From positions 1 through 41,383 of the IMG/VR virus record IMGVR_UViG_3300026549_000014: a stretch of 41,383 bases of DNA; one strand, 5' to 3'. Source of the stretch: a virus. The notes under the pieces were generated by a model. It did not search any database. It saw only the letters and a list, made by a program, of their open reading frames with translations, and was not told the origin of the DNA. Both the position numbers and the translations under genes were made by a program. Each line of letters begins with the position of its first letter. The stretch's first letter is position 1. Shown here piece by piece: positions 10,381 through 41,383 of this stretch.

Positions 10381-10381
10381 A

Positions 10382-15308: not shown

Positions 15309-15328
15309 CATATGTGGTACCACATATG
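15309..15328. promoter_or_regulatory. Operator-like site 2: perfect 20-bp palindrome CATATGTGGTACCACATATG
   Basis: The sequence equals its own reverse complement. It lies in the divergent intergenic region between the minus-strand cassette and terS. Confidence 0.6.
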
Positions 15329-15378
15329 GAGATTGCACAAAGGTGGTGGCCTATCCTGGCAAAAAGGGGGCCGGTAGA

Positions 15379-21831: not shown

Positions 21832-22266
21832 ATGAAAGTATCAGACATCATCGCGCGGTATAACGCAGAGATCTCCAATGAGATTGACGACAGCCTAAAG
21901 CTCACGCTGATCCACGACTGTGACAACAGGATCCAGGCAGACATCATTGATACACACTCAAGCAAGTCACCGCTTGGCAAAAAGATGTGGGCTGAGGACG
22001 GTGTGCTCTACATCAGCAAGGCCGCCAAGGCACAGGATATCGAGTACACCATGGATACGGATGTACTCGCCCCCGAGGCGTTTCTCCCTGTCTATCTGCT
22101 CTACATTGATCAGGCCATTGCGTGGGACCGCAACGACATGGACCGGTACAATGCGGCATCGCAGAGGTTTAACACAGCGTTTGGAGAGCTGCTTAACTGG
22201 TATTCCCGTTCTCATGCCGCCCCTCAGCCCAAACCGCACCACTTCCTGCACCGGGGAGGCATGTAA
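21832..22266 (+). CDS. Head-tail adaptor/connector-like protein (tentative)
   Basis: 144 aa, first gene after the capsid block. No motif-level identification. Confidence 0.5.
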   Translation: MKVSDIIARYNAEISNEIDDSLKLTLIHDCDNRIQADIIDTHSSKSPLGKKMWAEDGVLYISKAAKAQDIEYTMDTDVLAPEAFLPVYLLYIDQAIAWDRNDMDRYNAASQRFNTAFGELLNWYSRSHAAPQPKPHHFLHRGGM

Positions 22267-24059: not shown

Positions 24060-24205
24060 TAAAGATTGTCTTTGAGCGGCCGGTCCTCGACAGGGATACG
24101 CCACGGGAGAACATCGCCCTGCTGGATACCTGGGCTTCCGACGTCACGGACAAGCTCAACTATCTAGTTAGGCAGCTGCAGAAGGAGAAGGACAATGAAA
24201 AGTGA
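24056..24205 (+). CDS. Hypothetical small protein (49 aa, below the ORF-track cutoff)
   Basis: ATGA overlap at 24056-24059. MIKIVFERPVLDRDTPRENIALLDTWASDVTDKLNYLVRQLQKEKDNEK*. Overlaps the next start by 11 nt. Confidence 0.45.
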   Translation: MIKIVFERPVLDRDTPRENIALLDTWASDVTDKLNYLVRQLQKEKDNEK

Positions 24206-25007
24206 CATCTATAAAGTCCTGGATGTCGATACGGGAGAGGAGTACATCCTGCACGACAAAGACCTCCATGAGCAGGCAGACAGGCAGTCTGCTGATACCT
24301 CTGCCGCGGTCAGCATGGTGGAGCAGGAGACGTCCCGGGCAAAGCAGGCAGAAACACAGCTTCGGGATGCTATGAGCAGAATTACCTCGGACGTGAGTGC
24401 GAAGGTAACAGAAGTGCAGCAGGCTGCACAGAGTGCCACTAATGCGTCTTCTGAGGCATCCGAATACGCGCAGGCGGCATCGAACGCACAGGCATCAGCA
24501 GAGGATGCAGCGAACAATGCAAAGGATGCGCAGACCAAGGCCGAGGGCGCAAGCAAGAGCGCAAGCGTGGCATACTCCGACGCGGTTACGGCAAAGGAGG
24601 AAGCCGAGGCGGCTGTTAAGGAAGCCCTGGAGCATGTCGATACGGCAAAGGGATATGCAGAGCAGGCACAGGCTTCTTCTCAAGGCATCGCAGACGAGCT
24701 GGCAAAAGCACAGGCCGCAGCGCAGGAAGCAGGAGACAAGGCCGCGAGCGTTGCACAGTCCGCTTCTTCTGCCATAGAGAGCGCGCAGGCGGCAGCAAAG
24801 TCCGAGGCAAACGCAGAGAAGTACGCGCAGGCCGCAGCGCAGGATGCGGAGAAGACGGCACAAAACACAGACATAACTGTTCACTATGCACAGTACGTCC
24901 TTCCGGTGTTCGCCTATCAGAACAACAGACTGTATCTCAAGGACACGAGCCGTACTTCATTCGCTGTGTATAAGAACCGGCTGTTGTTCAAGTCTTACGG
25001 AGGTTAA
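24195..25007 (+). CDS. Tail fibre protein with an Ala/Ser/Gln/Glu-rich helical shaft
   Basis: A long A-x-x-A/S-A periodic region (AQSATNASSEASEYAQAASNAQASAEDAANNAKDAQTKAEGA...) typical of fibre shafts. Confidence 0.7.
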   Translation: MKSDIYKVLDVDTGEEYILHDKDLHEQADRQSADTSAAVSMVEQETSRAKQAETQLRDAMSRITSDVSAKVTEVQQAAQSATNASSEASEYAQAASNAQASAEDAANNAKDAQTKAEGASKSASVAYSDAVTAKEEAEAAVKEALEHVDTAKGYAEQAQASSQGIADELAKAQAAAQEAGDKAASVAQSASSAIESAQAAAKSEANAEKYAQAAAQDAEKTAQNTDITVHYAQYVLPVFAYQNNRLYLKDTSRTSFAVYKNRLLFKSYGG

Positions 25008-25009
25008 AC

Positions 25010-25486
25010 ATGGAGATTCCCAGTGGATACACAGCCCTCTCGCTTGTGGGCTTTACGGACCGGGGCACATACAGCGCTACAGAGACGTATGTGAAGAACG
25101 ACTTGGTCCATTACAAGAACTCAATATTCTGTGCAAAGCAGGACGACCTTACCGGCGTAGAGCCTACGGATGACGGAACTAGCTGGTACTACTTCGTATT
25201 CTCCCCGGATGACGTCGAGGAGAATGCAAGAACAGCCGCCAACGCGGCAGCCACAACGATACAGAAAGCGACCGAAACGGCGGCATCAGCAGCAGCGGCA
25301 GCCAATTCTGCGTCAGCCGCCTCCAGCTCTGAACAGTCTGCCGGAAAGCATGAGGCTAACGCCTCTGCATCAGCAGCGGCGGCAGAAGAGGCCGCAACGA
25401 AAGCTGCAGGATACGGAGCGGCGGCAACTTACAGCATCGGCATTAACCCAAGCACCGGCCACATGGCTGTGTTTTATAACGAGTAA
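25010..25486 (+). CDS. Tail fibre-associated protein: N-terminal Y-x-x-x-D-x-V-x-Y..W-type motif plus an Ala-rich helix
   Basis: RGTYSATETYVKNDLVHYKNSIFCAKQDDLTGVEPTDDGTSWYYF resembles the carbohydrate-binding-like motif common in fibre proteins. Confidence 0.65.
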   Translation: MEIPSGYTALSLVGFTDRGTYSATETYVKNDLVHYKNSIFCAKQDDLTGVEPTDDGTSWYYFVFSPDDVEENARTAANAAATTIQKATETAASAAAAANSASAASSSEQSAGKHEANASASAAAAEEAATKAAGYGAAATYSIGINPSTGHMAVFYNE

Positions 25487-25497: not shown

Positions 25498-27045
25498 ATG
25501 GCACAGGTTTTTGACCTTCCGGGATACGATCACGGAGCAAGAACAAGCGCGGCGCTTGAGGCGATCGCGGAAGCCCAGGAGGGGAATACTTCATCCCTGT
25601 CTGCACTTGAGAAGCAGATTGTAAAGGGATACGCGCGTGAGAGAAACGGCAAGGTATTCGCAACCAAGATCTATCGGTTTGCATCCAATACCACCTCTAT
25701 GGGAGAAAGACTCCGGGATTCTGTTGGACTTACCTGCACAGCATCCACAGACACCGTAGCGGGCACGGATGACTTTGCAACCGCATCCCCGATCTTTACC
25801 TATCAGAGATGTAACTACACAAGAGAGGACGACGGAACAGCAAGGCCTATTGCTCTTGAGGGATCCCCGACATATCGCACAAGCGGAGCCTATGATGTCG
25901 GAAACGTATATGCTACATTCTACTGGAATGTGGAGCATCACGGGACTTACGATGTTTTCTATATGTCTGACACTCCGCACCCAGAGCTTGGTCTTGTGCC
26001 CTGGTGTGAGGCTGTAAAAGCCGACGGAACCGTTCTCCCTTTCTATGTGCATTCCTGCTATGCGGCAGCCACGGCATCGGATGGACTGCTCCGGTCTCAG
26101 CCCGGTCTCTCTCCGGCATACAATATCTCGTACAACTCGATGATTACCGCCTTCCAGAAGAAGGGCACCGGGTACTGGGGAGCAGGATCTGAGAGAAATC
26201 TTTGGGGTATGCTGATGCTCATCATCAAGTATGCCACCAAGAACGTTCAGAAGATCTTCCGCGGCCATGCAGATACCTATTCTATGAAGGCGGTGGTGGC
26301 CTATGCAGAGACCGGGACAAAACGTATCCTTATAGCAAGCAACCCCGGATGGTATGCAGGGGCCTGCATTTCCCTCGGATCTGCCGACATTGACCAGGAT
26401 AGTTCTGCCGCACACGACATTGTAGACCGGGCGAAAATCGCAAGCATCGAGAAGGTTACAATCGACAGCACAACGTATGTTGCACTCAATCTGGACGTGT
26501 CGGCAACTTTCGACACCGCTACCACGGAGTACGTGAAGTGGTATCCGACATACACCGGAGAAACCGACAAGGTTATCGGACATCTCGATGGCTCCTATCT
26601 GTCCAATGCTGATGGGAGACATCCCTTCCGGATCCTGGGCACAGAATTTGCGTGGGGCCAGGCTTTTATTGAGTCCAATGCCGTTATGGAGAAGGACGCA
26701 AACGGGGATTGGCTCCAGTACTTTGCTCCGAGAGGAACAAAGCATGTAGCAAACGCACATACAGGCTACGTGCTTGCTGGTAAGATTCCCGGAGCAACCG
26801 GAGACTATTGGAGCGGAGACATCGACGTGGACACCAGGGGCTTTATGTGTCCCTCCACGGTGGGATCGTCTGACGCGCTTGGAACGGGTGACCGAGTATG
26901 GGGACCGCAATCCGGAAGCAAAGGTGATCTGCGAGAGCGATATACCGTCGGCTACCTGTGGGACGGTTCGAACCTCGGCCTTGCGCATGTCCATTGCTGG
27001 AACGTGCTTTCTGGGGCGTCCTGGCACTACGGGTGCTGCGATTAG
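25498..27045 (+). CDS. DGR target protein (probable receptor-binding protein) with a C-terminal variable region
   Basis: 515 aa in the fibre module. The last 34 codons are the VR, which matches the downstream TR apart from substitutions at TR adenines. The C-terminal W/Y/G/C pattern is consistent with C-type-lectin-fold DGR targets. Confidence 0.85.
   Translation: MAQVFDLPGYDHGARTSAALEAIAEAQEGNTSSLSALEKQIVKGYARERNGKVFATKIYRFASNTTSMGERLRDSVGLTCTASTDTVAGTDDFATASPIFTYQRCNYTREDDGTARPIALEGSPTYRTSGAYDVGNVYATFYWNVEHHGTYDVFYMSDTPHPELGLVPWCEAVKADGTVLPFYVHSCYAAATASDGLLRSQPGLSPAYNISYNSMITAFQKKGTGYWGAGSERNLWGMLMLIIKYATKNVQKIFRGHADTYSMKAVVAYAETGTKRILIASNPGWYAGACISLGSADIDQDSSAAHDIVDRAKIASIEKVTIDSTTYVALNLDVSATFDTATTEYVKWYPTYTGETDKVIGHLDGSYLSNADGRHPFRILGTEFAWGQAFIESNAVMEKDANGDWLQYFAPRGTKHVANAHTGYVLAGKIPGATGDYWSGDIDVDTRGFMCPSTVGSSDALGTGDRVWGPQSGSKGDLRERYTVGYLWDGSNLGLAHVHCWNVLSGASWHYGCCD
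26941..27042 (+). repeat. DGR variable region (VR)
   Basis: Gap-free 102-nt alignment to 27116-27217. I count 13 mismatches. Confidence 0.9.
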
Positions 27046-27115: not shown

Positions 27116-27217
27116 AATACCGTCGGCAACCTGAGGAACGGTTCGAACCTCGGCCTTGCGAATGTCAATTGCAGGAACGAGCTTTCTAGGGCGAACTGGA
27201 ACTACGGGTGCTGCAAT
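27116..27217 (+). repeat. DGR template region (TR)
   Basis: Contains 26 adenines, 13 of which differ in the VR. AAC/AAT codons line up with the variable residues when read in the VR frame. Confidence 0.9.
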
Positions 27218-27401: not shown

Positions 27402-28508
27402 ATGAAGAGAAAATGCAATCATACCGATATTACGGACAGAGAGTTTATCCGGAAAGCAATACACGAGTGTTTTACTCAGAAGGGCAGCAAGGCCTTCGAG
27501 CGAAGCGATGTGAAAGAACTCTTGGAATGGTGTGATCATTCCGAAGAAAAGCTGATAGATATGCTCCGGGCGGAGATCGTAGAAAGGCGGGTATCTCTCC
27601 CTCCTGTCCGTTATGCCGACCGGTACGACCACTCAAACGGCAAGCTCCGGCACATCACAATAGAGCACACCAAAGAGCAGATATACGATTACATCGCATC
27701 GGATGGGCTCGACGAGATTGCCGGGAGAATCGGTCATTATCAGATAGCCTGCAAGAAAGGCCAGGGACCACTCTACGGTGCCAAGGTAATACAGGGATGG
27801 CTACAGGATGAGTCGATCCGATACGGCGTAAAGGCGGACGCGCAGAAGTGCTATCCGAGCATCAGTAAAAGAAACATAATGCGGTGGCTCAGAAGGCACG
27901 TGAAGAATGACGATCTGCTATATCTGATTTACTGCCTGCTCTGTACATCAGACCAAGGCCTTCCGATCGGAAGCTATCTCTCCATCCGGCTGTGCGCTCT
28001 GTATCTCTCTGACCTGTATCATCACATCGAGGGCACGTACTTTGTTGAGAGGCGCGGCAAGAAACGAAACTGTGTAAAGCACGTCATGATTAACCTGGAC
28101 GATATCTATATCTTTGGAACGTCAGCCAAGGAACTTCATAGGGTGATGAACGGCTTGTTACCTTTTGCTAAAGCCATGGGCCTTACGATCAAACCAGACT
28201 GGAGGCTCCTTGATTTGGGGCCAAAGAACCCGGACGCACACATAGATGCGCTCGGGTATCGGATCTATCGGGGCAGGATCACAATGCGGCGCAGGAACTA
28301 CGTTAAAACAAAGAGGGCACAGCGGATGTTTGAGAAGAGCCCAAACATCGTCAATGCCAGGGCACTCGTCAGCTACTACGGAATGTTCGTGAAACACACA
28401 AACAGCAACAGATTCAATCATAAATACCAAGCAAGCAGAGCAGTACGCTCTGCAAGAAAGGTGGTATCGCAATATGATAAAAGCAAGATTCGACGGGAAA
28501 CAGCCTGA
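27402..28508 (+). CDS. Reverse transcriptase (DGR type)
   Basis: RT motifs in order: GVKADAQKCYPSI, LPIGSYLSIRLCALYL, HVMINLDDIYIFG, AKAMGLTIKP, IDALGYRIY. About 368 aa, with no intron maturase or endonuclease domains. Confidence 0.88.
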   Translation: MKRKCNHTDITDREFIRKAIHECFTQKGSKAFERSDVKELLEWCDHSEEKLIDMLRAEIVERRVSLPPVRYADRYDHSNGKLRHITIEHTKEQIYDYIASDGLDEIAGRIGHYQIACKKGQGPLYGAKVIQGWLQDESIRYGVKADAQKCYPSISKRNIMRWLRRHVKNDDLLYLIYCLLCTSDQGLPIGSYLSIRLCALYLSDLYHHIEGTYFVERRGKKRNCVKHVMINLDDIYIFGTSAKELHRVMNGLLPFAKAMGLTIKPDWRLLDLGPKNPDAHIDALGYRIYRGRITMRRRNYVKTKRAQRMFEKSPNIVNARALVSYYGMFVKHTNSNRFNHKYQASRAVRSARKVVSQYDKSKIRRETA

Positions 28509-29070: not shown

Positions 29071-29100
29071 GGGAGGACCGGGAGACCGGCCCTCCTTTTT
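29071..29100 (+). terminator. Rho-independent terminator
   Basis: GGGAGGACCGG gaga CCGGCCCTCC followed by TTTTT. Confidence 0.75.
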
Positions 29101-29159: not shown

Positions 29160-30680
29160 ATGGCATCCAGCAAATCTTCTAGTTCAACTAAATCCGGGAG
29201 CTCGACATCCTCCTATACAAAGGGAGGGAGCACAACAAACGGGGCAAGCACCTCTCAGGGAGCAAGCACTTCCCAGACAGTAGGTTCTTCCTCTTCGTCT
29301 GGCGGCTCTTCCACCGTAGGCGGCAGCTCTTCTCATACCGAGAGCGATACCTATTCCCAGTCCCATACCAGCAGTGCGTCCATCGGCGGGAGTACGTCGC
29401 AGTCCCAGTCCTCGTCCCTGGGCGGCAGCGCGTCTCAGTCCCAGTCCTCATCTCTGGGCGGGAGCACTGGCCAGACCACAGGAAAGTCGTGGTCGTCTGG
29501 GCAGGTATCTGATGAGACACAGGCACAGCGTGAGAGATGGCAGCAGGACTACGTGCCATCTCAGCAGGTACAGGATACGTATAAGCGCCTGCAGGACACG
29601 CTAAACAGTAAGCCCGGGGCCTTTTCCTCGTCCTACACAAACCAGCTCGACAGCCTGTACAGCCAGATTCTCAATCGCAAGGCGTTTTCGTACAATCCGA
29701 ACGCCGATGCGATGTATCAGGCGCTGAAGCAGCAGTACCAGACGCAGGGCAAGCAGGCCATGCAGGACACTATGGGGCAGGCGGCAAAGCTGACCGGAGG
29801 ATACAGCTCCAGCTATGCACAGACAGCCGCACAGCAGACCTATCAGAACTATCTGACGCAGCTTGCTAATCAGGTACCATCCCTGCGTAATCAGGCATAT
29901 CAGGAGTACACAGACGAGGGCAACAGGCTCAACAACCTGTACTCCCTTGCCGGTCAGCAGTACAACCGCGACTACCAGAACTACCGGGATGCAATGTCCG
30001 ACTGGCAGAACAACCGCGCTTACGATACCTCCGCGTATCAGGATGAGCGGAACTTCGACTATCAGAACTATGCTGGCAACCGGCAGTACTGGAATCAGGA
30101 ATACTGGAACGAGCGCAATGCCGAGCAGAGCAACGCTTCCAACAGTAAGGCTAATAACTGGAGCAACACTATCGGGAATGAGCAGTCCCAGAACTGGTCC
30201 ACCAGCCGGAGCAACAGCCAGAGCAATAACTGGAGCAAGAGCGAGAGCGACACGAACAGCCACAGCCATACCACGAGCGATACGAATACCAGTAACTGGA
30301 GCAACACAAGTAACTGGAACAATTCCATCAGCCAGCAGGCGACGGCGGCACAGAATGCGCAGGCAACCAACTCCTTGTCCAACACGGATAATTGGAACTC
30401 TTCCCTGTCCAACACCAATGCGTGGAGCAACACGAACAGCTCCTCCATTTCCTCCGGATCCGGGAGTTCCAAGTCCTCCAAGAGCTCTTCTTCCGTGGCA
30501 TCATCGACGCCGAGCTATATGTCCGACGCACAGCTTCAGAAGATGGAGCAGCAGCTTGAAGGCAAGAGCCCGGAGGATATCCAGAAATACTTCGATACGT
30601 TGTATGCTGCGCAGACCAAGGACTCCGACAGGAAACGAATCATCCAGCAGGCACAGTACTTCGGTTATAACAAAAAGTAA
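29160..30680 (+). CDS. S/N/Q/Y-rich low-complexity protein (506 aa), probable virion internal/ejection or tail-associated protein
   Basis: RBS AGGAGG. Ser-rich N-terminus with a duplicated SQSQSSSLGGS. A Q/Y-rich core (MQDTMGQAAKLTGGYSSSYAQTAAQQTYQNYL). A C-terminal region with about 8 NW(S/N) repeats. Confidence 0.75.
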   Translation: MASSKSSSSTKSGSSTSSYTKGGSTTNGASTSQGASTSQTVGSSSSSGGSSTVGGSSSHTESDTYSQSHTSSASIGGSTSQSQSSSLGGSASQSQSSSLGGSTGQTTGKSWSSGQVSDETQAQRERWQQDYVPSQQVQDTYKRLQDTLNSKPGAFSSSYTNQLDSLYSQILNRKAFSYNPNADAMYQALKQQYQTQGKQAMQDTMGQAAKLTGGYSSSYAQTAAQQTYQNYLTQLANQVPSLRNQAYQEYTDEGNRLNNLYSLAGQQYNRDYQNYRDAMSDWQNNRAYDTSAYQDERNFDYQNYAGNRQYWNQEYWNERNAEQSNASNSKANNWSNTIGNEQSQNWSTSRSNSQSNNWSKSESDTNSHSHTTSDTNTSNWSNTSNWNNSISQQATAAQNAQATNSLSNTDNWNSSLSNTNAWSNTNSSSISSGSGSSKSSKSSSSVASSTPSYMSDAQLQKMEQQLEGKSPEDIQKYFDTLYAAQTKDSDRKRIIQQAQYFGYNKK

Positions 30681-30688
30681 GGAGAGCT

Positions 30689-33600
30689 ATGGGGACAAAG
30701 TTTGATGACGACGAGGAGCGCCGCAGAAAGCAGCAACAGGAAAGATTGAAGGCGCAGGAAGATGCGCGCAAGGCAGATCAGGCAGAGGCGGCACGGCAGG
30801 CGGCCAATCTGCGCATGCAGAAGAACGCCATGCACTCTGAGGAGCGCATCTCCGATGAGAACGACAACACCGCGCACTTTGCTCCGAAGGCCATTGACAA
30901 GAAGACCCATCAGGTCACGTCCGGAGGTCAGATCAACGACAACTTCTCCGGATACATCGACTACAACGAGGCCGCAAAGCATGTCACCGCTGATCAGGTA
31001 CAGGCTGCGCACGAAACGCTTTCCGACATCCTCGGGTCTTCACATAGCTCCAAGAAGTATAAGGCATACTTCGGAGACAGCTATATTGACACGCAGAAGC
31101 AGTCCATGCACTCCGAGGATACGGCCTTCCTTGCCAAGGATAACCCTGCTGATACCTCCCTGCAGGCCGCTTACGACTCTGCGGTAAAGTCCCTCAAGTC
31201 CAAGAAAGAGCTCTCCATGAATGGGGAGGGCAATGCCTACAACCTCATGAGCTGGGACAATCCTACGACCCAGACGAGCATGAAGGGTGCATACAACCCG
31301 TTCAAAGACCAGAATGGCTCTATGGAGGACTACTATGCCGATCAGTACAAGCAGGCACAGCAGAACTACAACTACGTCCCCAACGCCCTGCAGAACGCTA
31401 TTGCTTCCGTTTCTCCCTTCGTGAATCCTGTGACAGGGCAGAAGCAGGCGACCGATCAGGACGTCTTCGCGGCCACACAGGCGCGGATGAATGCCTCTCC
31501 GGAGGACCAGTACGCCTATCAGGTAGCGAACCGGCGAAACGACTCCACCGGGTGGCAGACCGGACAGCTATCCGATGCGGACAAAGCTGAACTGCAGAGA
31601 TACCAGAACGCCATCGATGCGGCAAGCAAGGACAAGAATGCTCCGACGCTGAACCCCTATGAGACATACCGGTATCACAACCTCGTGTATGGCTCCCTGA
31701 CTGATGCACAGCGCAAGGCTGTAGACAACTACCAGACTGCCTACGATGAGTACCAGGGGGCTCAGTCTGACCTCAAAAACGGGGCTTCTGATGCGGATGC
31801 AGAGGCAAACTATGCCTCCATCGGTCTGACATCCAACCGGAAGGATAATGCTACCCTCCGGGCCAACGTGGTGTCGGCAAAGCAGAAGGTGGAACAGGCG
31901 CGCAACTCCATGCGGGCAGCAGGGCTCACGGATGAGCAGATCAATAAGTTCGTCGGATCCGATGACACGGACAAAACCTACAAGAACTCCTATCTTGGTT
32001 ACAACAGGAGCTATAAGGACTATCTGGACACGCAGGACGAGGCCAAACAGGTCACGGGCAGGAATGATGCCTGGGGCCTTTATAATCGTGCCGCGTCCGC
32101 TGTCGTGTCTTCTGCGGTCTCCCCGATTACCAACATTGGGTCCTTCGTCAACTCGCTTGGGGCAAAGTCTGCCGACCCCGGAACCTCAAAGAATGTCTAC
32201 GGCAACAAACTGAACAATGCCATGGACGCTTACAGAGCCGGAAACTCTGCGTATATGGGGAAGACTTACGGCAAGGCCGGAGAGTTCCTGTACAATGCCG
32301 CGCAGTCCGCCGGGGACTCGTTTGTCAATGGCATGATCATGGGCCCTGTCGCAAACAAGGTCTCCGGAGCCGCCGGAAAGATTCTTGGGAACGGAACGAA
32401 GGCTGCCTATGTGGTTGATAAGCTGAGCAATCTTGTGGGCTCCTCTGCCTTTGGCGCTGGAGCTTATGCGGACCGCATCAGAGAAGGCCAGGAGCGCGGA
32501 CAGAGTGCCGCCGGAACACAGGCTGCAGCTGTCGGTGCGGGCCTTGCGGAGATGGTGACTGAGGCGTGGTCTCTGGATTCCTTCACCGACATCCTCACGA
32601 AAAAGGGCGCAGCAGCCATGCGCAATACCCTTTCCAACATCCTCGTGCAGGCAGGCGTAGAGGGATCCGAGGAAGCCGCTGGCGATATCATGAACCGCGT
32701 GATCGACGACGCGGCTAATGGCAAGAACTCCGAGTACAGGCAGGCTGTGTCTGCATACCAGAAGCAGGGCATGACCGAGAAGCAGGCGAAGAAGAAGGCC
32801 AACGTGGACTTCCTCTCCGATACTCTGCAGGATGCACTGGCCGGTGCTCTGTCCGGTGGCGTGCTGGGCGGAGGTGCGCATGTCATGAACAACATGCAGA
32901 CCGCACAGCAGGCACAGACCGAGACCGCAGGGTATACCTCCGAGGACTTCCGGAACACCGCGGAGAGCTACAAGAAAGCCTCCGAGGGGATGACCGATAC
33001 TGGCGCACAGAAGTACTACAACGACGCAGCCAAGGCGGCAAACGATATCGCAGACCGCATGGACTCCGGGAAAAAGGTGAGCTCCTCCCTGTACTCCAAA
33101 CTGTACAACTCTGCCTATGAGGCGGAAGGAATCGAGAGCGAGAACCGGAAGCCTTCCGAGGAAAAGCAGGAGGTCACTCCGGACGATCAGGTCCACTTTA
33201 CTGTCCCCGAGGGAGCAAAGACGGTCGAGGAGGCCCTCAACTCTGGGGAGTCTGCACAGGAAAAAGTGAACAACATGGACCGGATCTTTGCGCGCAAGTC
33301 CAATAACATGGGCGCAGGGAATGTCCATGCCGCGATGCAGAGCGCACAGACCGCGCAAGAGCTCGTGGCCGCAAAGCGTGAAGCCGATATGTCCACTGAT
33401 GCCTCCGCACGCGATATCTCCGAGGCTTACTACAACCTGTACCAGGGACGCATGATCCAGAACGGACAGGCGACAGCAGAGGATTTCCAGAAGGCAGAGG
33501 CCTCCCCCACCATGCAGGAGGTTTATCAGGCCGCGAAGGAAGGCCATGCGCTCAACATCTCGGAGTCTGACCCCATGGATCTCCGGATGGCACAGAATGC

Positions 33601-36600
33601 GGGCAAACAGGCCAACATCCTGCTCAACTCGAACAGCGTGCTGGAGAATCAGGATCTTTCCAACGTGCAGATCCATCCTGCCACACAGAAGTCCGAGGCA
33701 TACGCAACCATCGACGGCAAGGACTACAGCCTCGACTCCCTCAACGATACAATCCAGAACCGGGCTTTACGTGTCCGCGTGGCCGGTGCAAGTCAGCAGT
33801 CCACGCAGGAGCTGGCAGACCTGTATCTCAAAGACGCGCCTCAGGGGATGAGCGAGGGGAGATGGAATACCACCTTCTCAACTCTGGAGGCTGGCGGAAG
33901 CGCAGGCAGAAACTTCGACGAGGCTTACAAGGCCATCGGCGGGTCTGCGGCCATGGTTGACGCTGACACTGCACGGCAGATCTACAATGCCGGGGCTGCG
34001 GCTGCACAGGCGCAGATCTCTGAGAATGTGAAGCGCTCCGGACAGTCTGTGGCGCGATATGGCACCGGATCCGTGATTGACTCCCGCAAGAACAGCAAGG
34101 AAGCCCTTCCCTATATGCCTGTCGTTGAAGCCATGGCCAAGGCTACGGGGGTGGATTTCTACCTCTCTGATGACGCCCCGAGCAATATCAACGGCACCTT
34201 TGACCGGGCGATGTCCCGCGTCATGATCAATACCAACAACTCCGACGCTGTGCTCAATACCCTGTTCCATGAAGGCATGGGCGAGTACATGCAGGCGTAC
34301 AATCCGGAAGGCTACAAGAGCGTCCAGAAGCTGGTATCTGACTACCTCGTAGATACGGACGGCCTCAAGAATGTTGCCGCAATCGGAAAGAAGTATCAGA
34401 GAGCATATCAGGCCGTGGAGGGAACCAAGTCCTTCTACGATGCCATGAGCGAGGCCGTGAACGACTCTATCGCAGGCATGTTCTCCACGGATGAGGGCAT
34501 CAAGCAGTTCACGGACTGGACCTACAAGCACGACAGCAGTCCCAAGTCTGCCCTGCAGAATGTCGCGGACTACTTCAAGCGCATCGGCGAGGCGTTCCAT
34601 AACCTCATCACGACCGGGCATCTCTCTGGCACTTCCCAGAGGACGGCACGGATGGCAGAGGATAGGGCAAGCCATATCCGGCAGATTATCCTTGACGAGA
34701 TGGACAAGGCTGTGGAGAACTCTAAAGCCGTCAGCGTTGATGAGAGTGCAAAGAGCGGAGTAGCATACTCCCTGGCTTCAAACGAGGAACAGACAGATAA
34801 GACGGAAAAACCTACAGAGCACCCGAGTGAATACTCCGATCTCCGCCATTCTCTGAATGACATCGGAGATGATGACTTCTTCTCCACTATGGGTACTGAG
34901 GAGAACCCAGACGATCCTGACGTAAAGCGCCGGCACGAGCTCATGGCTGAAGCTGAGAAAGCCCTCTCTGATGTGCATGTAGACGACAAGTATCTCAAGG
35001 TAACGGCCAAGGGGATCATTGACAGCTTTGGGTCCAGCTACGACAGCAAGACTCTTGCCGAGAACCTGCGCAAGGTGTTCTCCTATGCCAAGACGCACGA
35101 GGGATTCATGGGTTCCTCTGACTATGAGGGGATCATGGACGACGTGCTCCGGCCTGTGATGGAGGCATCCGAGCAGACAGACGACACCCAGCTCCGTCAC
35201 GTAAAGGAGATCATGGCCGCGCATCCGTTCCATCTCACTGCAGACCAGATGGCCATGGTGAGTGATGACTACCGCGGATGGAAGGCGCAGTATCCGGAGC
35301 TCAAAGTATCCAAGAACGCACCTTCTACGCTGGACCAGCAGTTCAGTGAGATCGCGGACCAGCTCCGGCAGGCAGGCATTGCGGATCTTGATGAATCAGC
35401 CAACGAGACGGACCAGCTCACGGAACTGTTGGATGCCATCGACTCTGCGCAGCCTATCTCCCTGTATGCCTTCTCCAACGAGGAAGACGCACAGCAGGCT
35501 GTAAAAGATATGGCCGATACCGTAATGACGTCCTATCTGTCTGCTGCAGAGGCTGACGCGCAGGGGCAGGCGCTCGTGCGGATCCGGACGGCCAGAGACC
35601 GAATCATCGACGAGGGCAAGGCGCGCAGAAAGAAAGCAAGCCAGGATTATCAGGCAAGACTTTCCGCTGCTCGCAAGGACATCGCAAAGTCCAACCGCAG
35701 TTTCAAAGGACAGGGCCTTTCCAACGATGAGAACGTCAAGCGCTTAACCAGCGCCGCAGAGAGCCTGGAGGCACAGGCAAAGGAACTCAGGTCTCAGGCG
35801 CTTTCCTCCGATGCAAAGACCGACCAGGCAAAGCTGGCAACCCTCAATGCCAAGGAGAAAGCGTCCGCTGATAAGGCCGCACTTATGCAGAGAATGAGAG
35901 AACAGAGGGCGGCAGCACTGGAGAGGCAGGCACAGCAGTACCGACAGACCGTAGCGAGACTCAAGACACAGTACCACTCCAAGGCGGAGCAGCTTGCGCT
36001 TACCAAGGCCAAGAACACAGAGAAGTGGAAGAACTACCGCGAGAAGCAGGCGCGCAATGCAGAACTGGAGAAAATCACCAAGAGCTACGACAGCCTGTAC
36101 AAGCAGCTCATGCATCCCACGGACGAGAAACACATTCCGGAGGAGTTCAAGTCCGCTGTAGCAGAGTTCCTGGACTCCATCAACATGATCCGGCCCGACA
36201 TCCGGTACGATAACAAGAGCGGAGTGTACCGCCTCCGTATCTGGGACGGTACCTTCGAGAAGGACGGGAAGGCGCACTACACGGAGAGCGGATATTCCAC
36301 CTATAACGAGGCATACCAGGCGTTCTATCGGTATGTCTTCGAGGATAACGGCACTCTCTCCTCCAAGAACGCGACCATCCGGGCGAAGATGCAGGGAGTG
36401 CGCGATCTGTACGAGCAGGCAGCAAAGGAAGATGAGGCAGAGAATATCTCTCAGCTCCTCGACCCGGATCTGTATGAACGCCTCAAGACACTCTCGAGCA
36501 GGAATGTAGCCGCACTGAGCAGTGATGAGCTGCACACGATCTCCCTTGCCCTGCAGAACATCCAGCATGCGGTAAACAACGAGAACGAGCTGTTCAGACA

Positions 36601-39427
36601 GTCGCAGAGCCCGAAGGCAATCTATGAATCCATCCGGGATCACGCAGACAGTGTGCATGGCAGGCAGTCCCATCGGCCCGGAACGGACAAACTTCTCGAT
36701 TTTTTATCACTCGACAACGCTACCCCGGAGACCGTGTTCCACGGTCTGGGCAAGGGTGGAGACTCCGTTTTCAAGGAGTTTGTTAAGGCTAACAATATGA
36801 AGAGCCGAGACCTCCGCACCGCTCAGGAGTACATGATCGGGGACGGGAGCACAGACCACGGCGTTTACAAGTCCGGCGCGCTGAAGGGCGTGAGCCAGAA
36901 ACAGCTCCAGGAATGGTCCACAAAGTCGATCACTGTACACGGTAACATCCGTATGACCTACGGCCAGATCATGGGCCTGTATGAGCTTGCAAAGCGGCAG
37001 CAGGCTATGCTCCACACAGTGGGAGGCATCTCCATTGATAACTTCCTCGATGAGCGCCACAAAAAGGTCACGCAGGGCAGAGCATACCTGTCCGCCTCCG
37101 AGATCCAGGCTATCGTGGACAGCAATCTTACAACACAACAGAAGCAGGTCGCGGATGCCATGCAGAAGTTTATGGCGCAGGAGTGCTCCTCCTGGGGGAA
37201 CGAAGCGTCCATGCTGATGTATGGGTATAAGAAGTTCAACGAGGAGAACTACTACCCGATCACGGTGGACAAGAAGGTACTCTCCACAAAGAACGCTGAT
37301 GTTGCACAGGCCGCAGTAAACGCCATCAAGAACATGGGGATGACAAAAGCAGTTGTTCCCAACGCCAGCAATCCTCTCGTGGTTAAGGACATTTTTGATG
37401 TGTACACAAACCACGTCGCGGACATGGCCACCTACCACAGCTATGCCGCTCCACTCGCTGACCTTCTCCGAGTGCTGAACTACAAGGAAGTCGTGGAGCG
37501 GGGTGGGTACAAGAACTACGATACGGTAAAGGATGCCATTACCAAGATTTACGGCGACGGAGGGGTACGGTACATCACGAATTTCATCACCGACATCAAC
37601 GGCCGAGAGCGGAGCAGCTACATCAATCCGCTCGGGTGGCTTACGAGCAACTACAAGGCCGCCGCGGTCGGATGGAATCTTCGCGTTGTGCGGCAGCAGC
37701 CCACGGCAATATTCCGGGCGGCTGACGTGATCTCTCCCAAGTACCTCATGGAGGGCCAGATTCTCAATAAGGATGCCATGGAGATGCAGGATCGCACCTC
37801 CGATATGACATGGGAGAAGAAGCAGGGCAACGTGGACGGCTACATCTATAAGTCCATGAAGCAGACACTGACCGGGGCAGCTACCCCTGTAGAAAAGCTC
37901 CGGAACGCATCGATGTCCCTTGCCGGGAAGGCCGATGACTTCACCTGGAGGCGTATCTATAATGCAGCCTATCTGGAACAGAGAGACAAGTTCCGGAAGG
38001 AAGGCAAGGCCACATCCGGCAAGGCATTCGAGGATGCTGTGAATGACCGGTTCGATGAGATCATCGTGCGGACACAGGTCACAGACGCGACGATTCTGCG
38101 CTCTCAGTTCATGCGGAGCAAGGATACCTTGAACCAAATCCAGAGCGCGTTTATGGCAGAGCCTACAAAGTCCTACAACATGTTCTTGCGGGCTGCCATG
38201 GATGCGGTACAGCAGTCCAACGGAAAATGGATTGCCGGCAAAGTGCTATGGGGAATGAAGAAGGCCGCGGCGGTCTACCTCGTGACACAGATCTTCACAG
38301 CCCTTGCCCAGTCCTCTGTGGACTGGATCCGCAAAGATCCGGAAGACGGAGAAGACGTGGCAGAGTTCATGCTCCGGGTCTACAAGGACAACTTCTTTGA
38401 TGACCTGAATCCCCTGAACCTCGTTCCGATCCTGAAGGACGCTTCCAACTCTATCCAGTCACTCATCTCGTGGGCGAAGGGAGAGCCTACATACTCGGAT
38501 GACAGCCGCATGGATATCGCATCGCTCAATACGGCGATCAAGGCCGTGGAGAACACTGCAAAGGCAATCATGGGAAAAGGCACGGTCTATGGCGCCCTTT
38601 ACTCCGATATCAAGGCCTTATCTCAGATCATCGGAATTCCTGCCGCCAATCTGATACGAGATGTGACAGCAGTAAGAAACAAGCTGAACAACATCCAGAG
38701 CGTGCATGATCTCATCGGCGGAGACTGGAAAACCACAATGCCTTCGCAGAAAGAGAAGATCCTCGACGCATACAAGTATGGAGATCTCGGAGACCTGGCA
38801 TCCAGAATTGTTGACAGCAAGACGGCAGACGCGCTTGCAGATAACGCCGACGATATCAAGGAGGGAAACATCGAGAAGGCCGCAGTGGAGAAGCAGGCAA
38901 GGTCCGAAGCGCTCACGACTATCCTTGGCTCGTTCAAGAAGCAGTACCAGGCGGCAGACGATGCTACCCGGAAGGAGATGAAGGATAAGCTCACCTCCCA
39001 GCTCAAGAGCGCAGGATTCAGTGAGGAGGCCATCGACGAAAAGCTCGGCAACTGGACCGATGTAAAGCTCAAGAAGGACGCGAACGGCTATAAGAACATC
39101 GACCCTGTGACCGGAGAGAAGACCTCCGTGGGCGATGTCTTCAAGACGATCCGCACAGGATCCGGAGACTACAAGAAGGAAATCGACAAGGCCATAAAAG
39201 CAGGCAAGACCTACAAACAGATTGAAACCGACATCACAAGTGCCTTTAAGGCTCAGTACCTTGCGGACTACCAGAAGAGCCCGTCCTCGGTATCACAGCT
39301 CAAAAACAGGCTTGCCGCAGTGTACAAGTACCTCGACGACCAGGAGATTAAAGAGGGGACGCAGCAAAAGGAGACGACATCCAGACAGTGGCTGGATGAT
39401 CCAGCAGCCTACCTCAAAAGCCATTGA
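30689..39427 (+). CDS. Giant 2912-aa protein (about 21 percent of the genome), probable multi-domain virion/ejection protein
   Basis: A single uninterrupted frame with RBS AAGGAGAG. Contains a Gly/Ala-rich hydrophobic segment (about nt 32270-32900) and a long K/R/Q/A coiled coil (about nt 35570-36110). Terminator downstream. Confidence 0.85.
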   Translation: MGTKFDDDEERRRKQQQERLKAQEDARKADQAEAARQAANLRMQKNAMHSEERISDENDNTAHFAPKAIDKKTHQVTSGGQINDNFSGYIDYNEAAKHVTADQVQAAHETLSDILGSSHSSKKYKAYFGDSYIDTQKQSMHSEDTAFLAKDNPADTSLQAAYDSAVKSLKSKKELSMNGEGNAYNLMSWDNPTTQTSMKGAYNPFKDQNGSMEDYYADQYKQAQQNYNYVPNALQNAIASVSPFVNPVTGQKQATDQDVFAATQARMNASPEDQYAYQVANRRNDSTGWQTGQLSDADKAELQRYQNAIDAASKDKNAPTLNPYETYRYHNLVYGSLTDAQRKAVDNYQTAYDEYQGAQSDLKNGASDADAEANYASIGLTSNRKDNATLRANVVSAKQKVEQARNSMRAAGLTDEQINKFVGSDDTDKTYKNSYLGYNRSYKDYLDTQDEAKQVTGRNDAWGLYNRAASAVVSSAVSPITNIGSFVNSLGAKSADPGTSKNVYGNKLNNAMDAYRAGNSAYMGKTYGKAGEFLYNAAQSAGDSFVNGMIMGPVANKVSGAAGKILGNGTKAAYVVDKLSNLVGSSAFGAGAYADRIREGQERGQSAAGTQAAAVGAGLAEMVTEAWSLDSFTDILTKKGAAAMRNTLSNILVQAGVEGSEEAAGDIMNRVIDDAANGKNSEYRQAVSAYQKQGMTEKQAKKKANVDFLSDTLQDALAGALSGGVLGGGAHVMNNMQTAQQAQTETAGYTSEDFRNTAESYKKASEGMTDTGAQKYYNDAAKAANDIADRMDSGKKVSSSLYSKLYNSAYEAEGIESENRKPSEEKQEVTPDDQVHFTVPEGAKTVEEALNSGESAQEKVNNMDRIFARKSNNMGAGNVHAAMQSAQTAQELVAAKREADMSTDASARDISEAYYNLYQGRMIQNGQATAEDFQKAEASPTMQEVYQAAKEGHALNISESDPMDLRMAQNAGKQANILLNSNSVLENQDLSNVQIHPATQKSEAYATIDGKDYSLDSLNDTIQNRALRVRVAGASQQSTQELADLYLKDAPQGMSEGRWNTTFSTLEAGGSAGRNFDEAYKAIGGSAAMVDADTARQIYNAGAAAAQAQISENVKRSGQSVARYGTGSVIDSRKNSKEALPYMPVVEAMAKATGVDFYLSDDAPSNINGTFDRAMSRVMINTNNSDAVLNTLFHEGMGEYMQAYNPEGYKSVQKLVSDYLVDTDGLKNVAAIGKKYQRAYQAVEGTKSFYDAMSEAVNDSIAGMFSTDEGIKQFTDWTYKHDSSPKSALQNVADYFKRIGEAFHNLITTGHLSGTSQRTARMAEDRASHIRQIILDEMDKAVENSKAVSVDESAKSGVAYSLASNEEQTDKTEKPTEHPSEYSDLRHSLNDIGDDDFFSTMGTEENPDDPDVKRRHELMAEAEKALSDVHVDDKYLKVTAKGIIDSFGSSYDSKTLAENLRKVFSYAKTHEGFMGSSDYEGIMDDVLRPVMEASEQTDDTQLRHVKEIMAAHPFHLTADQMAMVSDDYRGWKAQYPELKVSKNAPSTLDQQFSEIADQLRQAGIADLDESANETDQLTELLDAIDSAQPISLYAFSNEEDAQQAVKDMADTVMTSYLSAAEADAQGQALVRIRTARDRIIDEGKARRKKASQDYQARLSAARKDIAKSNRSFKGQGLSNDENVKRLTSAAESLEAQAKELRSQALSSDAKTDQAKLATLNAKEKASADKAALMQRMREQRAAALERQAQQYRQTVARLKTQYHSKAEQLALTKAKNTEKWKNYREKQARNAELEKITKSYDSLYKQLMHPTDEKHIPEEFKSAVAEFLDSINMIRPDIRYDNKSGVYRLRIWDGTFEKDGKAHYTESGYSTYNEAYQAFYRYVFEDNGTLSSKNATIRAKMQGVRDLYEQAAKEDEAENISQLLDPDLYERLKTLSSRNVAALSSDELHTISLALQNIQHAVNNENELFRQSQSPKAIYESIRDHADSVHGRQSHRPGTDKLLDFLSLDNATPETVFHGLGKGGDSVFKEFVKANNMKSRDLRTAQEYMIGDGSTDHGVYKSGALKGVSQKQLQEWSTKSITVHGNIRMTYGQIMGLYELAKRQQAMLHTVGGISIDNFLDERHKKVTQGRAYLSASEIQAIVDSNLTTQQKQVADAMQKFMAQECSSWGNEASMLMYGYKKFNEENYYPITVDKKVLSTKNADVAQAAVNAIKNMGMTKAVVPNASNPLVVKDIFDVYTNHVADMATYHSYAAPLADLLRVLNYKEVVERGGYKNYDTVKDAITKIYGDGGVRYITNFITDINGRERSSYINPLGWLTSNYKAAAVGWNLRVVRQQPTAIFRAADVISPKYLMEGQILNKDAMEMQDRTSDMTWEKKQGNVDGYIYKSMKQTLTGAATPVEKLRNASMSLAGKADDFTWRRIYNAAYLEQRDKFRKEGKATSGKAFEDAVNDRFDEIIVRTQVTDATILRSQFMRSKDTLNQIQSAFMAEPTKSYNMFLRAAMDAVQQSNGKWIAGKVLWGMKKAAAVYLVTQIFTALAQSSVDWIRKDPEDGEDVAEFMLRVYKDNFFDDLNPLNLVPILKDASNSIQSLISWAKGEPTYSDDSRMDIASLNTAIKAVENTAKAIMGKGTVYGALYSDIKALSQIIGIPAANLIRDVTAVRNKLNNIQSVHDLIGGDWKTTMPSQKEKILDAYKYGDLGDLASRIVDSKTADALADNADDIKEGNIEKAAVEKQARSEALTTILGSFKKQYQAADDATRKEMKDKLTSQLKSAGFSEEAIDEKLGNWTDVKLKKDANGYKNIDPVTGEKTSVGDVFKTIRTGSGDYKKEIDKAIKAGKTYKQIETDITSAFKAQYLADYQKSPSSVSQLKNRLAAVYKYLDDQEIKEGTQQKETTSRQWLDDPAAYLKSH

Positions 39428-39431
39428 ACAG

Positions 39432-39462
39432 ACGGTGCCCTATATCCGTGGCACCGTTTTTT
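39432..39462 (+). terminator. Rho-independent terminator after the giant gene
   Basis: ACGGTGCC (39432-39439) pairs with GGCACCGT (39450-39457), followed by TTTTT. Confidence 0.8.
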
Positions 39463-39490
39463 GTACGATATCACCTAAGGAGAAAACACT

Positions 39491-40135
39491 ATGAGTCTGG
39501 AAGTAAATTACCTATTTACGGTCGATCTGGCGCGGCCATCAAAATCGAACACGCTGCTCATCAGCAAGGGAGATACCGGGACCAGAGTGCTTACCTTTGT
39601 CCTGCTGGAGAACGGCAAGGAATTCGACATGTCCGGTGCGAACTCCGCATACCTGTCCGCAAAGACTGCAGCCGGAGCCACGATCGTTGACTCCCAGAAC
39701 TGTGAAATCCTCACCACCAAAAACAAGGACGGCGAGACGGTAAACGATAACAAGATCCGCTATACGATCCCCTACCAGATCTCCAATAGCGCGGGACGCT
39801 CCACCATGGACATTACGATCATGGGAGACGGCAAGCGGATCACCTCGTTTGAGTTCTACGTGGATACCAGGTCGGAGCTGTACGACACAGATACCTACTC
39901 TGACACGGACGATATTTCTGGGTTCCGGGATCTGCTCAACCGGGCATTGACTGCCGTTCAGAAGATTGAGGTGATGACGCAGGCATCCACGCTGCCTTGC
40001 CCTTACCCAATGAGGGTCACAGTCGCCGGGGATACCTACGAGTATAACGGAAGCAGTACTGTCGAGGTATCGTTTGGTAAGCTCCCGATCATCGGACCGC
40101 ACGCAGTAGACTGCACAGCACTGAACGTCTACTAA
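39491..40135 (+). CDS. BppU-like (baseplate upper protein N-terminal domain-like) tail protein
   Basis: ISKGDTGTRVLTFVLLENGKEFDMSGANSAYLSAKTAAGATI matches the D-x-x-x-R-x-L-x-F-x-L..G..x-D-L-x-G pattern of BppU_N. Confidence 0.6.
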   Translation: MSLEVNYLFTVDLARPSKSNTLLISKGDTGTRVLTFVLLENGKEFDMSGANSAYLSAKTAAGATIVDSQNCEILTTKNKDGETVNDNKIRYTIPYQISNSAGRSTMDITIMGDGKRITSFEFYVDTRSELYDTDTYSDTDDISGFRDLLNRALTAVQKIEVMTQASTLPCPYPMRVTVAGDTYEYNGSSTVEVSFGKLPIIGPHAVDCTALNVY

Positions 40136-40144
40136 GGAGGAGTT

Positions 40145-41014
40145 ATGGCACAGAATAGTAAGGGCGCATACCTGAACGTACTACAGGATGCAGACGGCAA
40201 AGACGTCTACCCGATCACTCGGGCAGATGGCGTATATATGAATGACGGCACTACAGCTCAGGCTAAGTGTAAAGCGCTGGATTCCAAGATCGACAGCACA
40301 AAGTCCACGCTTGAACAAAATTTTCAGGCTGGTGTTGACGGCATCTATAATGCCATTACTGCCCAGGGGACAACACCGGCCAGTAAGTCCCAGGGCGATG
40401 TAAAAAACGCCATCAAAACTCTAGCTGACGCAAAGTATGCAGCAGGCAATTCTGCTGGTGTCGCATCCGTAACTGTTTCCGCCTCCGCATCCGGACGGAC
40501 AGTTACCGCTAAAGCCAGCAACGGTAAAACTACATCGGCAAGTGTAGCTCTTGCAGGGAGCAACGGGACGGTGTCGGTATCTACTGCCGGAGGCTCTGGA
40601 AATCAGAGTTTTGACATTACGGATGGCTGGTGCACAAGCGTTAATGTAGACCGAACAGGTGCATATAACCAAGGCGTAAAGGATGCTGATAACAGGGTCA
40701 ACTCTTCCAGCGCCAACTATAAGGGCGGATATAACGCGGGCTATAGTGCGGGTCTAGCCGCGGGGAGAGCTGAGAAAAAGACTATTGTTATACAGCTTAC
40801 AGGTGACAAAACAGCTTACGGAGACTTGCCCGGAGGAACGATAAATCTACAGTCCAATGTTGATTGGACTGTTTCTTCTGAGGGCAACGGTATCGGCTTA
40901 GGAAACAGCAGAGGCACCGTTTATGCACAGGTTAATAAAGGGCAGTCACGTTCATCTTCTGGCCCTGTATGGATAAACATGGGCGCATGGGGAACGCTGA
41001 CGATCAAGGCATAA
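40145..41014 (+). CDS. Tail fibre/spike protein
   Basis: N-terminal DGKDVYPITRADGVYMNDGTT is typical of fibre N-termini. A/S/G-rich beta region. Last structural gene before the lysis genes. Confidence 0.65.
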   Translation: MAQNSKGAYLNVLQDADGKDVYPITRADGVYMNDGTTAQAKCKALDSKIDSTKSTLEQNFQAGVDGIYNAITAQGTTPASKSQGDVKNAIKTLADAKYAAGNSAGVASVTVSASASGRTVTAKASNGKTTSASVALAGSNGTVSVSTAGGSGNQSFDITDGWCTSVNVDRTGAYNQGVKDADNRVNSSSANYKGGYNAGYSAGLAAGRAEKKTIVIQLTGDKTAYGDLPGGTINLQSNVDWTVSSEGNGIGLGNSRGTVYAQVNKGQSRSSSGPVWINMGAWGTLTIKA

Positions 41015-41048: not shown

Positions 41049-41383
41049 ATGGTAGTAGTAGACCCTAGCACATGGATATCACTGGCTGCAGTGACAATCA
41101 GCCTTGTCTTTGGCGTACTCAACGCCGGGCACGCAAGCCAGACGGATGTAAAAGAGCAGCTTGAGGATGCAAGACGCGACGCGGCGCAGCAGGCCCGGAT
41201 CGAGACGAGCTTGTCGACGATCCGGCAGGACACCGGAGACATCAAGTCGGACCTGAGAGGGCTCAAGTCGGACATGCAGGACATCACGACGCGGCTGGTC
41301 AAAGTTGAGCAGAGCGTGAGCTCCGCGCACAAGAGGATCGATGAGATCGTAAAAAGAGAGGGAATGGAAAATGATCAACTGGA
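41049..41383 (+). CDS. Lysis-cassette membrane-anchored coiled-coil protein (5' part; continues through the end overlap to stop at 144-146; 117 aa in total)
   Basis: RBS GAGGA. N-terminal TM helix WISLAAVTISLVFGVL followed by a charged coiled coil (IKSDLRGLKSDMQDITTRLVKVEQSV). Overlaps the holin start. Confidence 0.7.
   Translation, partial: MVVVDPSTWISLAAVTISLVFGVLNAGHASQTDVKEQLEDARRDAAQQARIETSLSTIRQDTGDIKSDLRGLKSDMQDITTRLVKVEQSVSSAHKRIDEIVKREGMENDQL

Follow-up and report, generated by a model that had tools for sequence, protein, structure and literature searches.

A giant, nearly cargo-free relative of phage polyvalent proteins as a candidate ejection protein of a gut-Clostridia phage

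Phage polyvalent proteins are encoded among late virion genes, and it has been predicted that they enter the capsid by packaging and are injected together with the DNA (Iyer, Burroughs, Anand, de Souza & Aravind 2017; PMC5512222). The prophages phi1 and phi4 of Clostridium clostridioforme LM41, about 41 kb in size, contain an 8-kb open reading frame (ORF) that accounts for ~20% of the genome and shows similarity to LPD3, and podovirus-like particles are released (PMC11318856). Both the polyvalent-protein class and the presence of a giant ORF in similar Clostridium prophages are therefore already known. Another giant protein, gp47 of phage phi24B (2,811 amino acids, aa; domains LPD5, LPD1, LPD38 and MuF-C), is abundant in virions by proteomics and invisible in cryo-electron microscopy (cryo-EM) (bioRxiv 10.64898/2026.04.10.717836), and threading through a ~35 Å channel as beads on a string has been proposed for the N4 virion RNA polymerase (vRNAP) (PMC13434306). 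The ejection proteins described so far are those of podoviruses of Gram-negative hosts (PMC8954989). The packaging and delivery of giant polyvalent proteins are almost unstudied. Here, we analyzed a gene for a 2,912-aa protein at positions 30689-39427 of the viral sequence IMGVR_UViG_3300026549_000014 from IMG/VR (positions 1-41,383; this whole stretch of 41,383 nucleotides is hereafter the window). The giant protein is probably an internal virion (ejection) protein of a short-tailed gut-Clostridia phage and a version of the polyvalent family that is reduced to its chassis. The separation of chassis and slot, the existence of cargo-free members and a recurrent HExx(x)E zincin variant appear not to be described in PMC5512222 or PMC11318856.

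Positions 1-127 of the window are an exact copy of 41257-41383, the signature of a circular assembly, which gives a complete genome of 41,256 bp. All genes in the window, the two terminator signals and the mapped parts of the giant gene are on the + strand. An earlier note on this DNA had described a single ORF occupying about a fifth of the genome and having a good ribosome-binding site, and both statements were confirmed. The gene covers 21.2% of the genome, starts with an ATG located 8 nt from the stop of the upstream 506-aa gene, and is preceded by the ribosome-binding site AAGGAGAG (30679-30686, direct reading). The longest open frame in the window has 2,918 codons, compared with at most 327 (mean 221) in 200 shuffles, and thus exceeds the shuffle maximum ~9-fold. 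Full-length orthologues from independent samples share 93-96% identity, and the ratio of nonsynonymous to synonymous substitution rates (dN/dS) against the DNA of a close relative was 0.11 overall and between 0.03 and 0.17 in each of nine segments. The gene is therefore real and constrained; the orthologues and the purifying selection in all segments rule out an assembly artefact or gene fusion, including the frame-splitting error that had been named as a possible objection. Two segments, aa 1-300 and aa 2501-2700 (30689-31588 and 38189-38788), are mosaic among close relatives. There, identity falls to 66-82% among relatives that are otherwise 95-100% identical, and dS rises to 1.4-1.8 (1.4 in aa 2501-2700), as opposed to 0.2-0.5 elsewhere, which points to recombinational replacement within the gene and not to relaxed selection.

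Chassis and cassette slot of the giant protein

A homologue search over 5.8 billion proteins returned 70 proteins, namely 5 close orthologues and 65 remote giants of 2,216-4,600 aa, the latter encoded mostly on ~40-kb contigs. Many of the remote homologues carry an ART-PolyVal, MuF_C, LPD3, LPD23, PBECR3/5, C5 methylase, SNF2 helicase, M23 peptidase or zeta toxin domain. E values between the giant protein and carriers of ART-PolyVal, LPD23, LPD3, MuF_C and PBECR5 went down to 1e-185, with collinear landmarks; the likeness to large polyvalent proteins, which had been drawn as an analogy, is thus one of homology. The family chassis begins with module A, which is followed ~450 aa downstream by a zincin-like domain and then by a charged long helix and an all-alpha module B of ~950 aa. 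It amounts to ~1,900 conserved residues, and neither module A nor module B has a Pfam model or a solved structure. The comparison with related genomes proposed in the earlier note told this conserved chassis apart from a swapped slot segment, and it did so in a family that numbers at least 3,456 clusters and is abundant among the gut Clostridia of humans and animals.

The giant protein had no match in Pfam, NCBIfam or PDB sequences when searched as a whole (in the PDB also by profile) or, in the domain libraries, as tiles of ~350 aa. Its sole match in PHROGs was phrog_22978 (function not assigned; E 1.5e-177; aa 1710-2666), so that the tile-wise profile searches suggested previously delivered this one family but no Pfam or NCBIfam domain. 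No effector domain was detected with Pfam, NCBIfam or PHROGs in the whole protein or in its tiles, and at most one zincin-like domain can be assigned. Polyvalency calls for at least two domains of disparate biochemical activity in one polypeptide; because no disparate effector domains were detected, we file the giant protein, on the evidence of its sequence, as a chassis-only variant of the polyvalent-protein kind rather than as a member. Its module A, zincin-like domain and module B are homologous to those of ART-PolyVal, LPD3, LPD23, MuF_C and PBECR3/5 carriers, and a late virion gene setting together with a zincin-type domain is a theme highlighted by PMC5512222. It differs from the described polyvalent proteins in having no detectable effector and in its zincin motif, which is HExxxE and not HExxH; furthermore, module A and the ~950-aa module B are absent from the Pfam LPD and polyvalent models. 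Among annotated phage records, the giant protein matched one unannotated fragment by tblastn, and no nucleotide match was obtained. The only cultured relative, as judged from the portal, is Bacillus phage PK1, whose distance and sparse annotation make it uninformative here.

Module B (aa 1701-2670; 35789-38698) defines the family and is covered by 63 of the 65 remote homologues. Structure models were made for aa 521-1370 and aa 1701-2704, which together comprise 1,854 residues. AlphaFold2 (AF2) predicts an almost entirely alpha-helical, compact multi-helix fold for module B, with a predicted local distance difference test score (pLDDT) of 69 and a predicted template modeling score (pTM) of 0.70. 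The invariant polar residues of this module include H2109, N2171, Y2188, H2242, Q2337, K2377, D2416, Q2463, D2466 and E2491. Foldseek found no PDB fold match (best E 0.077; template modeling score, TM, ≤0.12), and there was no match to PDB sequences, Pfam or NCBIfam. The 76 significant matches in BFVD are all C-terminal pieces of giant uncharacterized viral proteins, many of them labelled polyvalent, ART or MuF. An exhaustive phmmer search with module B gave 3,456 clusters at 50% identity (2,639 at E ≤ 1e-30), in which the module is nearly always located in the C-terminal third of proteins of 2,000-4,500 aa. A long helical region rich in Lys, Arg, Gln, Ala and Glu spans aa 1628-1808 (35570-36112), and these five residues make up 52-61% of aa 1601-1800. 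This region had been described as a K/R/Q/A coiled coil of ~180 residues. Its composition is real, and the modelled part (aa 1729-1808) is predicted to be one continuous, single helix of 80 residues.

The N-terminal 520 residues (30689-32248; dN/dS 0.08) are lineage specific, and aa 1-400 are covered by no remote homologue. An N-terminal third rich in Gln, Asn and Tyr had been claimed, but the enrichment is confined to aa ~200-400 (26-32%, as compared with 9-19% in most of the rest and 24% at aa 901-1000). Module A (aa 521-770; 32249-32998; dN/dS 0.03) is a Gly/Ala/Glu-rich helical module common to ~28 remote homologues, with a motif that contains invariant Gly and Glu columns in the trimmed alignment (G.GAA..ERG..G.AE..E..QxGVExSEE..GGxxSGG). 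The earlier note saw here a Gly/Ala-rich hydrophobic block that could insert into membranes. The Gly/Ala richness holds, but the module is also rich in Glu and stays below transmembrane hydropathy: its mean Kyte-Doolittle value is -0.2 to -0.4, and no 19-residue window in aa 530-770 reaches 1.2. Membrane insertion of module A is thus not supported by hydropathy. In the whole protein, only two 19-residue windows reach 1.2, at aa 469-487 and aa 2526-2544; the second is the sole hydrophobic stretch of module B and lies inside the recombining segment aa 2501-2700. The membrane-inserting hydrophobic helices that serve as a criterion for ejection proteins were accordingly not found in the giant protein. 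A Gly-rich motif at the end of module A, LAGALSGGVLGGGAHV, aligned by profile to the influenza HA2 fusion peptide at an E value of ~0.09; this alignment is not significant, is a membrane hint at most, and was not relied on.

The zincin-like domain (aa 1136-1297; 34094-34579) was located by a hidden Markov model match and contains the motif H1194-E1195-G-M-G-E1199 and a distal E1255. Module A and the motif are separated by 459 aa in the giant protein and by ~350-500 aa in most relatives. The pattern in the relatives is HELTHF..SP....E..VAD, and the giant protein aligns to HExxH...E..V.D. While HExxH is present in 112 of 150 representatives, the other 38 (the giant protein and 37 more) show an HExx(x)E variant, in which the second His is replaced by a conserved Glu in the form of HExxE[FY] or HExxGE. 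The giant protein reads HEGMGE and hence has no canonical HExxH. The first His and the catalytic Glu are retained, the distal E1255 is invariant, and the dN/dS of the domain is 0.10, for which reasons the motif would represent an altered metal site rather than decay. A "dead peptidase" with a degenerate site was also considered, and this reading was softened once 38 relatives proved to conserve the replacement Glu. The zincin assignment is based on the conserved motif and on the predicted order of secondary structure, strand-strand-strand-helix(HE)-helix, which has a local pLDDT of 57-84 within a poor model of aa 521-1370 (pLDDT 50). Foldseek returned nothing significant for that model (best local matches at probability ~0.8 and E ~0.6), and Pfam does not recognize the domain, even in HExxH relatives.

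The linker at aa 1362-1380 (34772-34828) corresponds to an empty cassette slot. In 7 of the 7 relatives with Pfam coordinates, effector domains sit between the zincin motif and module B, the sole exception being an M23 peptidoglycan peptidase at the extreme C terminus of P0033. The slot of the relatives contains ART-PolyVal, PBECR nucleases, LPD3/23, MuF_C, a methylase or an SNF2 helicase. Between the end of the zincin domain and the core of module B there are 770-2,857 aa (median 1,436), and the giant protein, with 1,023 aa, ranks 15th of 148. This modularity is illustrated by P0004 and P0005, which are 90-96% identical to the giant protein and have an LPD3-like cassette of 207 aa inserted at aa 1369-1379 (Pfam E 2e-5; 25.2 bits, just below the gathering score of 27), and by the more distant P0006, which has LPD23 and ART-PolyVal at the same aa 1362-1380 junction. 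The slot of the giant protein appears almost empty, and the protein reads as an essentially cargo-free, near-minimal version of the family. Such a member is the simplest start for learning the role of the chassis.

Candidate role in the virion

The giant gene is surrounded by TerS, TerL, portal, capsid, tail, fibre and lysis genes. The order capsid, 86-aa protein, 144-aa protein, 597-aa protein ... 506-aa protein, giant protein, 214-aa protein, 289-aa protein and holin agrees with the previous gene list for the region between capsid and lysis genes, and the giant gene occupies the position of an ejection protein gene. A virion role is supported by this late-operon position between tail and fibre genes, bracketed by terminators. 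Both terminators had been called strong, which applies to the downstream one: directly 3' of the stop, at 39432-39463, direct reading gave ACGGTGCC-N10-GGCACCGT followed by TTTTTT, that is, an 8-bp G+C-rich stem (39432-39439/39450-39457) and T6. The upstream signal at 29080-29100 (scan match at 29080-29096 plus direct reading) is weaker, a terminator-like hairpin with a modest stem of 5-7 pairs and T5 that closes the diversity-generating retroelement (DGR) unit ahead of the two-gene unit. The order P22-like portal, Prp, scaffold, capsid ... partner, giant protein, fibres and lysis recurs in relatives in which the giant protein is ~25% identical. Such conservation of a structural-operon position argues against a late-expressed non-virion protein that acts in the producing cell, for instance as an assembly factor or a defence/counter-defence hub. 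That no structural-protein domain was recognized would fit such a protein, but the 21% of the genome spent on the gene argues for a core virion function and family members contain the virion-linked MuF_C domain, and we hold this explanation to be quite improbable.

A short-tailed virion, as the earlier note had suggested, is the best reading because the portal is P22-like, long-tail genes are absent, the gene order is conserved and LM41 releases podovirus-like particles. In agreement with that note, no window protein matched tube, sheath, chaperone or tape-measure families in PHROGs, Pfam, NCBIfam or PDB sequences, and no frameshift pair was found ahead of the giant gene. These results bear on the possibility that the giant protein is a tape measure and belongs to a long-tailed phage in which the tube gene has diverged beyond recognition. 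Great length, alpha-rich and Gly-rich segments and a position ahead of distal tail genes, one of which has an orthologue in L002 with weak BppU_N similarity, would all suit a tape measure. However, tape-measure proteins follow a rule of thumb of ~1.5 Å per residue, by which 2,912 aa would imply a tail of ~440 nm. The P22-like portal, the compact multi-helix fold predicted for module B in place of an extended coil, and the podovirus-like appearance of the LM41 particles disagree with this explanation as well, and we give it hardly any weight.

By its description, the LM41 pair phi1/phi4 resembles the window phage as a ~41-kb gut-Clostridia phage in which a giant ORF takes up ~20% of the genome and genes for a tube or tape measure are absent, and its similarity to LPD3 is shared by the close relatives P0004 and P0005. 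In contrast to phi1/phi4, the window has a DGR, no integrase and a giant protein without the LPD3 cassette; PMC11318856 gives no domain architecture. The protein gp47 of phi24B is likewise a giant multidomain protein of a temperate podovirus and a proposed packaged ejection protein, which differs in its Gram-negative host and its LPD5/LPD1/LPD38/MuF-C domains. No sequence relationship between the two was detected, in that the phage family of gp47 was not among the tblastn matches in phage records. The podovirus internal proteins N4 gp50, T7 gp14/15/16 and P22 gp7/20/16 are also encoded between tail and fibre genes, reach giant size in N4, and are threaded through the tail as loosely connected domains. 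Unlike them, the giant protein has no polymerase, lytic transglycosylase or transmembrane helices, and it showed no similarity to known ejection proteins by PDB sequence or, for aa 521-1370 and 1701-2704, by fold. These two modelled regions resembled neither T7 gp15/gp16 nor the N4 or crAss virion RNA polymerases.

An RNA polymerase carried in the virion, as in N4 (gp50) or the crAss-like phages, would be similar in size and share the podovirus context, and Iyer et al. count N4-type vRNAPs among the polyvalent proteins (PMC5512222). Nevertheless, full-length searches of Pfam, NCBIfam and PDB sequences gave no RNA polymerase match, no polymerase fold was seen in the modelled aa 521-1370 and 1701-2704, and the close relatives are temperate and have a CI-type repressor, which implies the use of the host polymerase. 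It is thus very unlikely that the giant protein is a polymerase of this type.

Packaging and ejection of the giant protein are inferred from the gene position and from the precedents of phi24B gp47 and the N4 vRNAP. In the mechanism that we propose, the chassis formed by module A, the zincin-like domain, the helix and module B would serve incorporation into the capsid. At infection, the giant protein would exit via the short tail as a string of loosely connected domains and would then help the DNA to cross the thick wall and the membrane, in a conduit or escort role. The slot between the zincin domain and module B would be a recombination site for effectors that act in the newly infected cell, such as the ADP-ribosyltransferase, PBECR RNases, methylase, SNF2 helicase and LPDs of the relatives. 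As the slot is essentially empty in this phage, the giant protein has presumably been retained for what the chassis itself does. The M23 wall-degrading domain of P0033 was counted among the support for an ejection protein; proteins that encounter the wall of the cell during entry, such as T7 gp16, typically bring a wall-degrading domain with them in the virion. Several observations weigh against an ejection protein. The giant protein contains no recognizable portal-binding MuF N-terminal domain, peptidoglycan hydrolase or transmembrane segment; the two modelled regions (aa 521-1370, pLDDT 50, and aa 1701-2704) are unlike T7 gp14-16 or N4 proteins in fold; and a P22-like portal alone does not prove podovirus morphology.

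The C-terminal M23 peptidase of that one relative, which is reminiscent of the tail-tip lysins of Gram-positive phages, would also suit an external tail component, such as a central needle, knob or extended fibre, which would remain attached to the particle instead of being ejected as internal cargo. The same applies to the position of the gene within the tail and fibre region, with fibre-like genes next downstream, to a helix of at least 80 residues, and to a distant structural match that bears the label "structural protein" in Gundel_1. However, the models predict a nearly all-alpha-helical and globular fold with no beta-helix, Ig-like or collagen-like repeats, and the ADP-ribosyltransferase, RNases, methylase and SNF2 helicase found in the same polypeptide in relatives make sense only if they are delivered into the cell. 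In addition, phi24B gp47 does not show up in the cryo-EM density of the particle exterior. We therefore consider an external tail component to be unlikely and retain the ejection protein as the preferred interpretation.

Directly upstream of the giant gene, at 29160-30680, lies the gene for a 506-aa Ser/Gln/Tyr-rich protein without a PHROG or Pfam match. Over a core of ~150 aa, it is 37-49% identical to the products of the genes that directly precede the giant gene in the distant relatives L005 and L004, and it is, judging from these gene pairs, a conserved partner of the giant protein. On a more speculative level, it is possible that modules A and B, the variant zincin domain and the 506-aa partner form a new single-polypeptide ejectosome of podoviruses that infect Gram-positive (Clostridia) hosts. 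This structural machine would get through one membrane and a thick wall, and its slot, with interchangeable cassettes, would make it a modular platform for protein injection as well. If this were true, the chassis-only version would show the delivery machine to be essential rather than its cargo. Next to no ejection proteins have been described for podoviruses with Gram-positive hosts, and a Clostridia ejectosome would, if confirmed, fill this gap. The slot also suggests a natural route by which these phages may deliver proteins into gut anaerobes.

Neighbouring genes, hosts and lifestyle

The packaging and head genes comprise TerS (14788-15876), TerL (15854-17260), the P22-type portal (17260-19236; Pfam 1.2e-29), a Prp-type cysteine protease (19233-19550), a scaffold-like protein (19609-20499) and the major capsid protein (20513-21508). 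Textbook Prp cleavage motifs are present at the N termini of the scaffold-like protein (LLNLQYF|ADEEG) and of the capsid protein (VMFLQYF|ANPNT). Prp processing of the giant protein was considered and rejected, since neither it nor its 70 homologues contain a single LxLQ[FHY]F[AS] motif, whereas scaffold and capsid do. The capsid gene is followed by the genes for the 86-aa and 144-aa proteins (21518-21778 and 21832-22266) and the conserved 597-aa protein (22266-24059). The latter matches phrog_511, which is labelled "internal virion protein," has a family-wide homologue (29% identity over 510 aa) and showed no PDB relative by sequence; it looks more like a tail hub or nozzle protein than like an internal virion protein.

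Further downstream are two fibre-like proteins of 270 and 158 aa (24195-25007 and 25010-25486), a 515-aa tail protein that is the DGR target (25498-27045) and the DGR reverse transcriptase (27402-28508). The DGR is bona fide: the variable repeat (26942-27042) makes up the 3'-terminal 101 nt of the gene for the 515-aa tail protein, the template repeat is located at 27117-27217, and the two differ at 12 positions, of which 12 are adenine in the template repeat. Beyond the giant gene, distal tail or fibre-like proteins of 214 aa (phrog_16573) and 289 aa are encoded at 39491-41014, and the holin and endolysin, identified by PHROGs, follow past the circular junction (115-372 and 376-1266).

A host search starting from a single protein identified no close relative. 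We then used a hand-built degenerate DNA pattern derived from invariant module B residues to search GTDB genomes, for which ~1 chance match was estimated. This pattern revealed at least 120 loci, and all 120 were confirmed by tblastn. Nearly all hosts were gut Clostridia, namely, Oscillospiraceae, Lachnospiraceae, Faecousia, Acutalibacteraceae, Enterocloster and Christensenellaceae, with the qualification that taxonomic labels of metagenome-assembled genomes may reflect binning errors. Among the isolates with matches are Butyrivibrio proteoclasticus P6B7, whose prophage is 42% identical in module B and lies on a 332-kb scaffold, Gallibacter intestinalis (DSM 108706, in a prophage) and Eubacterium sp. 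CAG:251. Many of the GTDB matches were on contigs of 41-46 kb, and the family occurs mostly in prophages and ~40-kb phages.

The relatives encode integrases, CI-type repressors, holins of the Firmicute type and lysins of the CHAP or amidase type, and the window contains no integrase and no CI-type repressor. This difference is illustrated by L002, whose giant protein is 90-96% identical and which has an integrase and a CI-type repressor (23061-25156), as compared with neither in positions 1-14000 of the window. The window phage may be a lytic derivative, or the difference may reflect module exchange. Elsewhere in the window, a 61-nt repeat is present in three copies (11074-11134, 11421-11481 and 11882-11942), each spanning a ribosome-binding site and gene start, and the genes at 11441-11905 and 11902-12417 have common N termini, which indicates that they are tandem paralogues.

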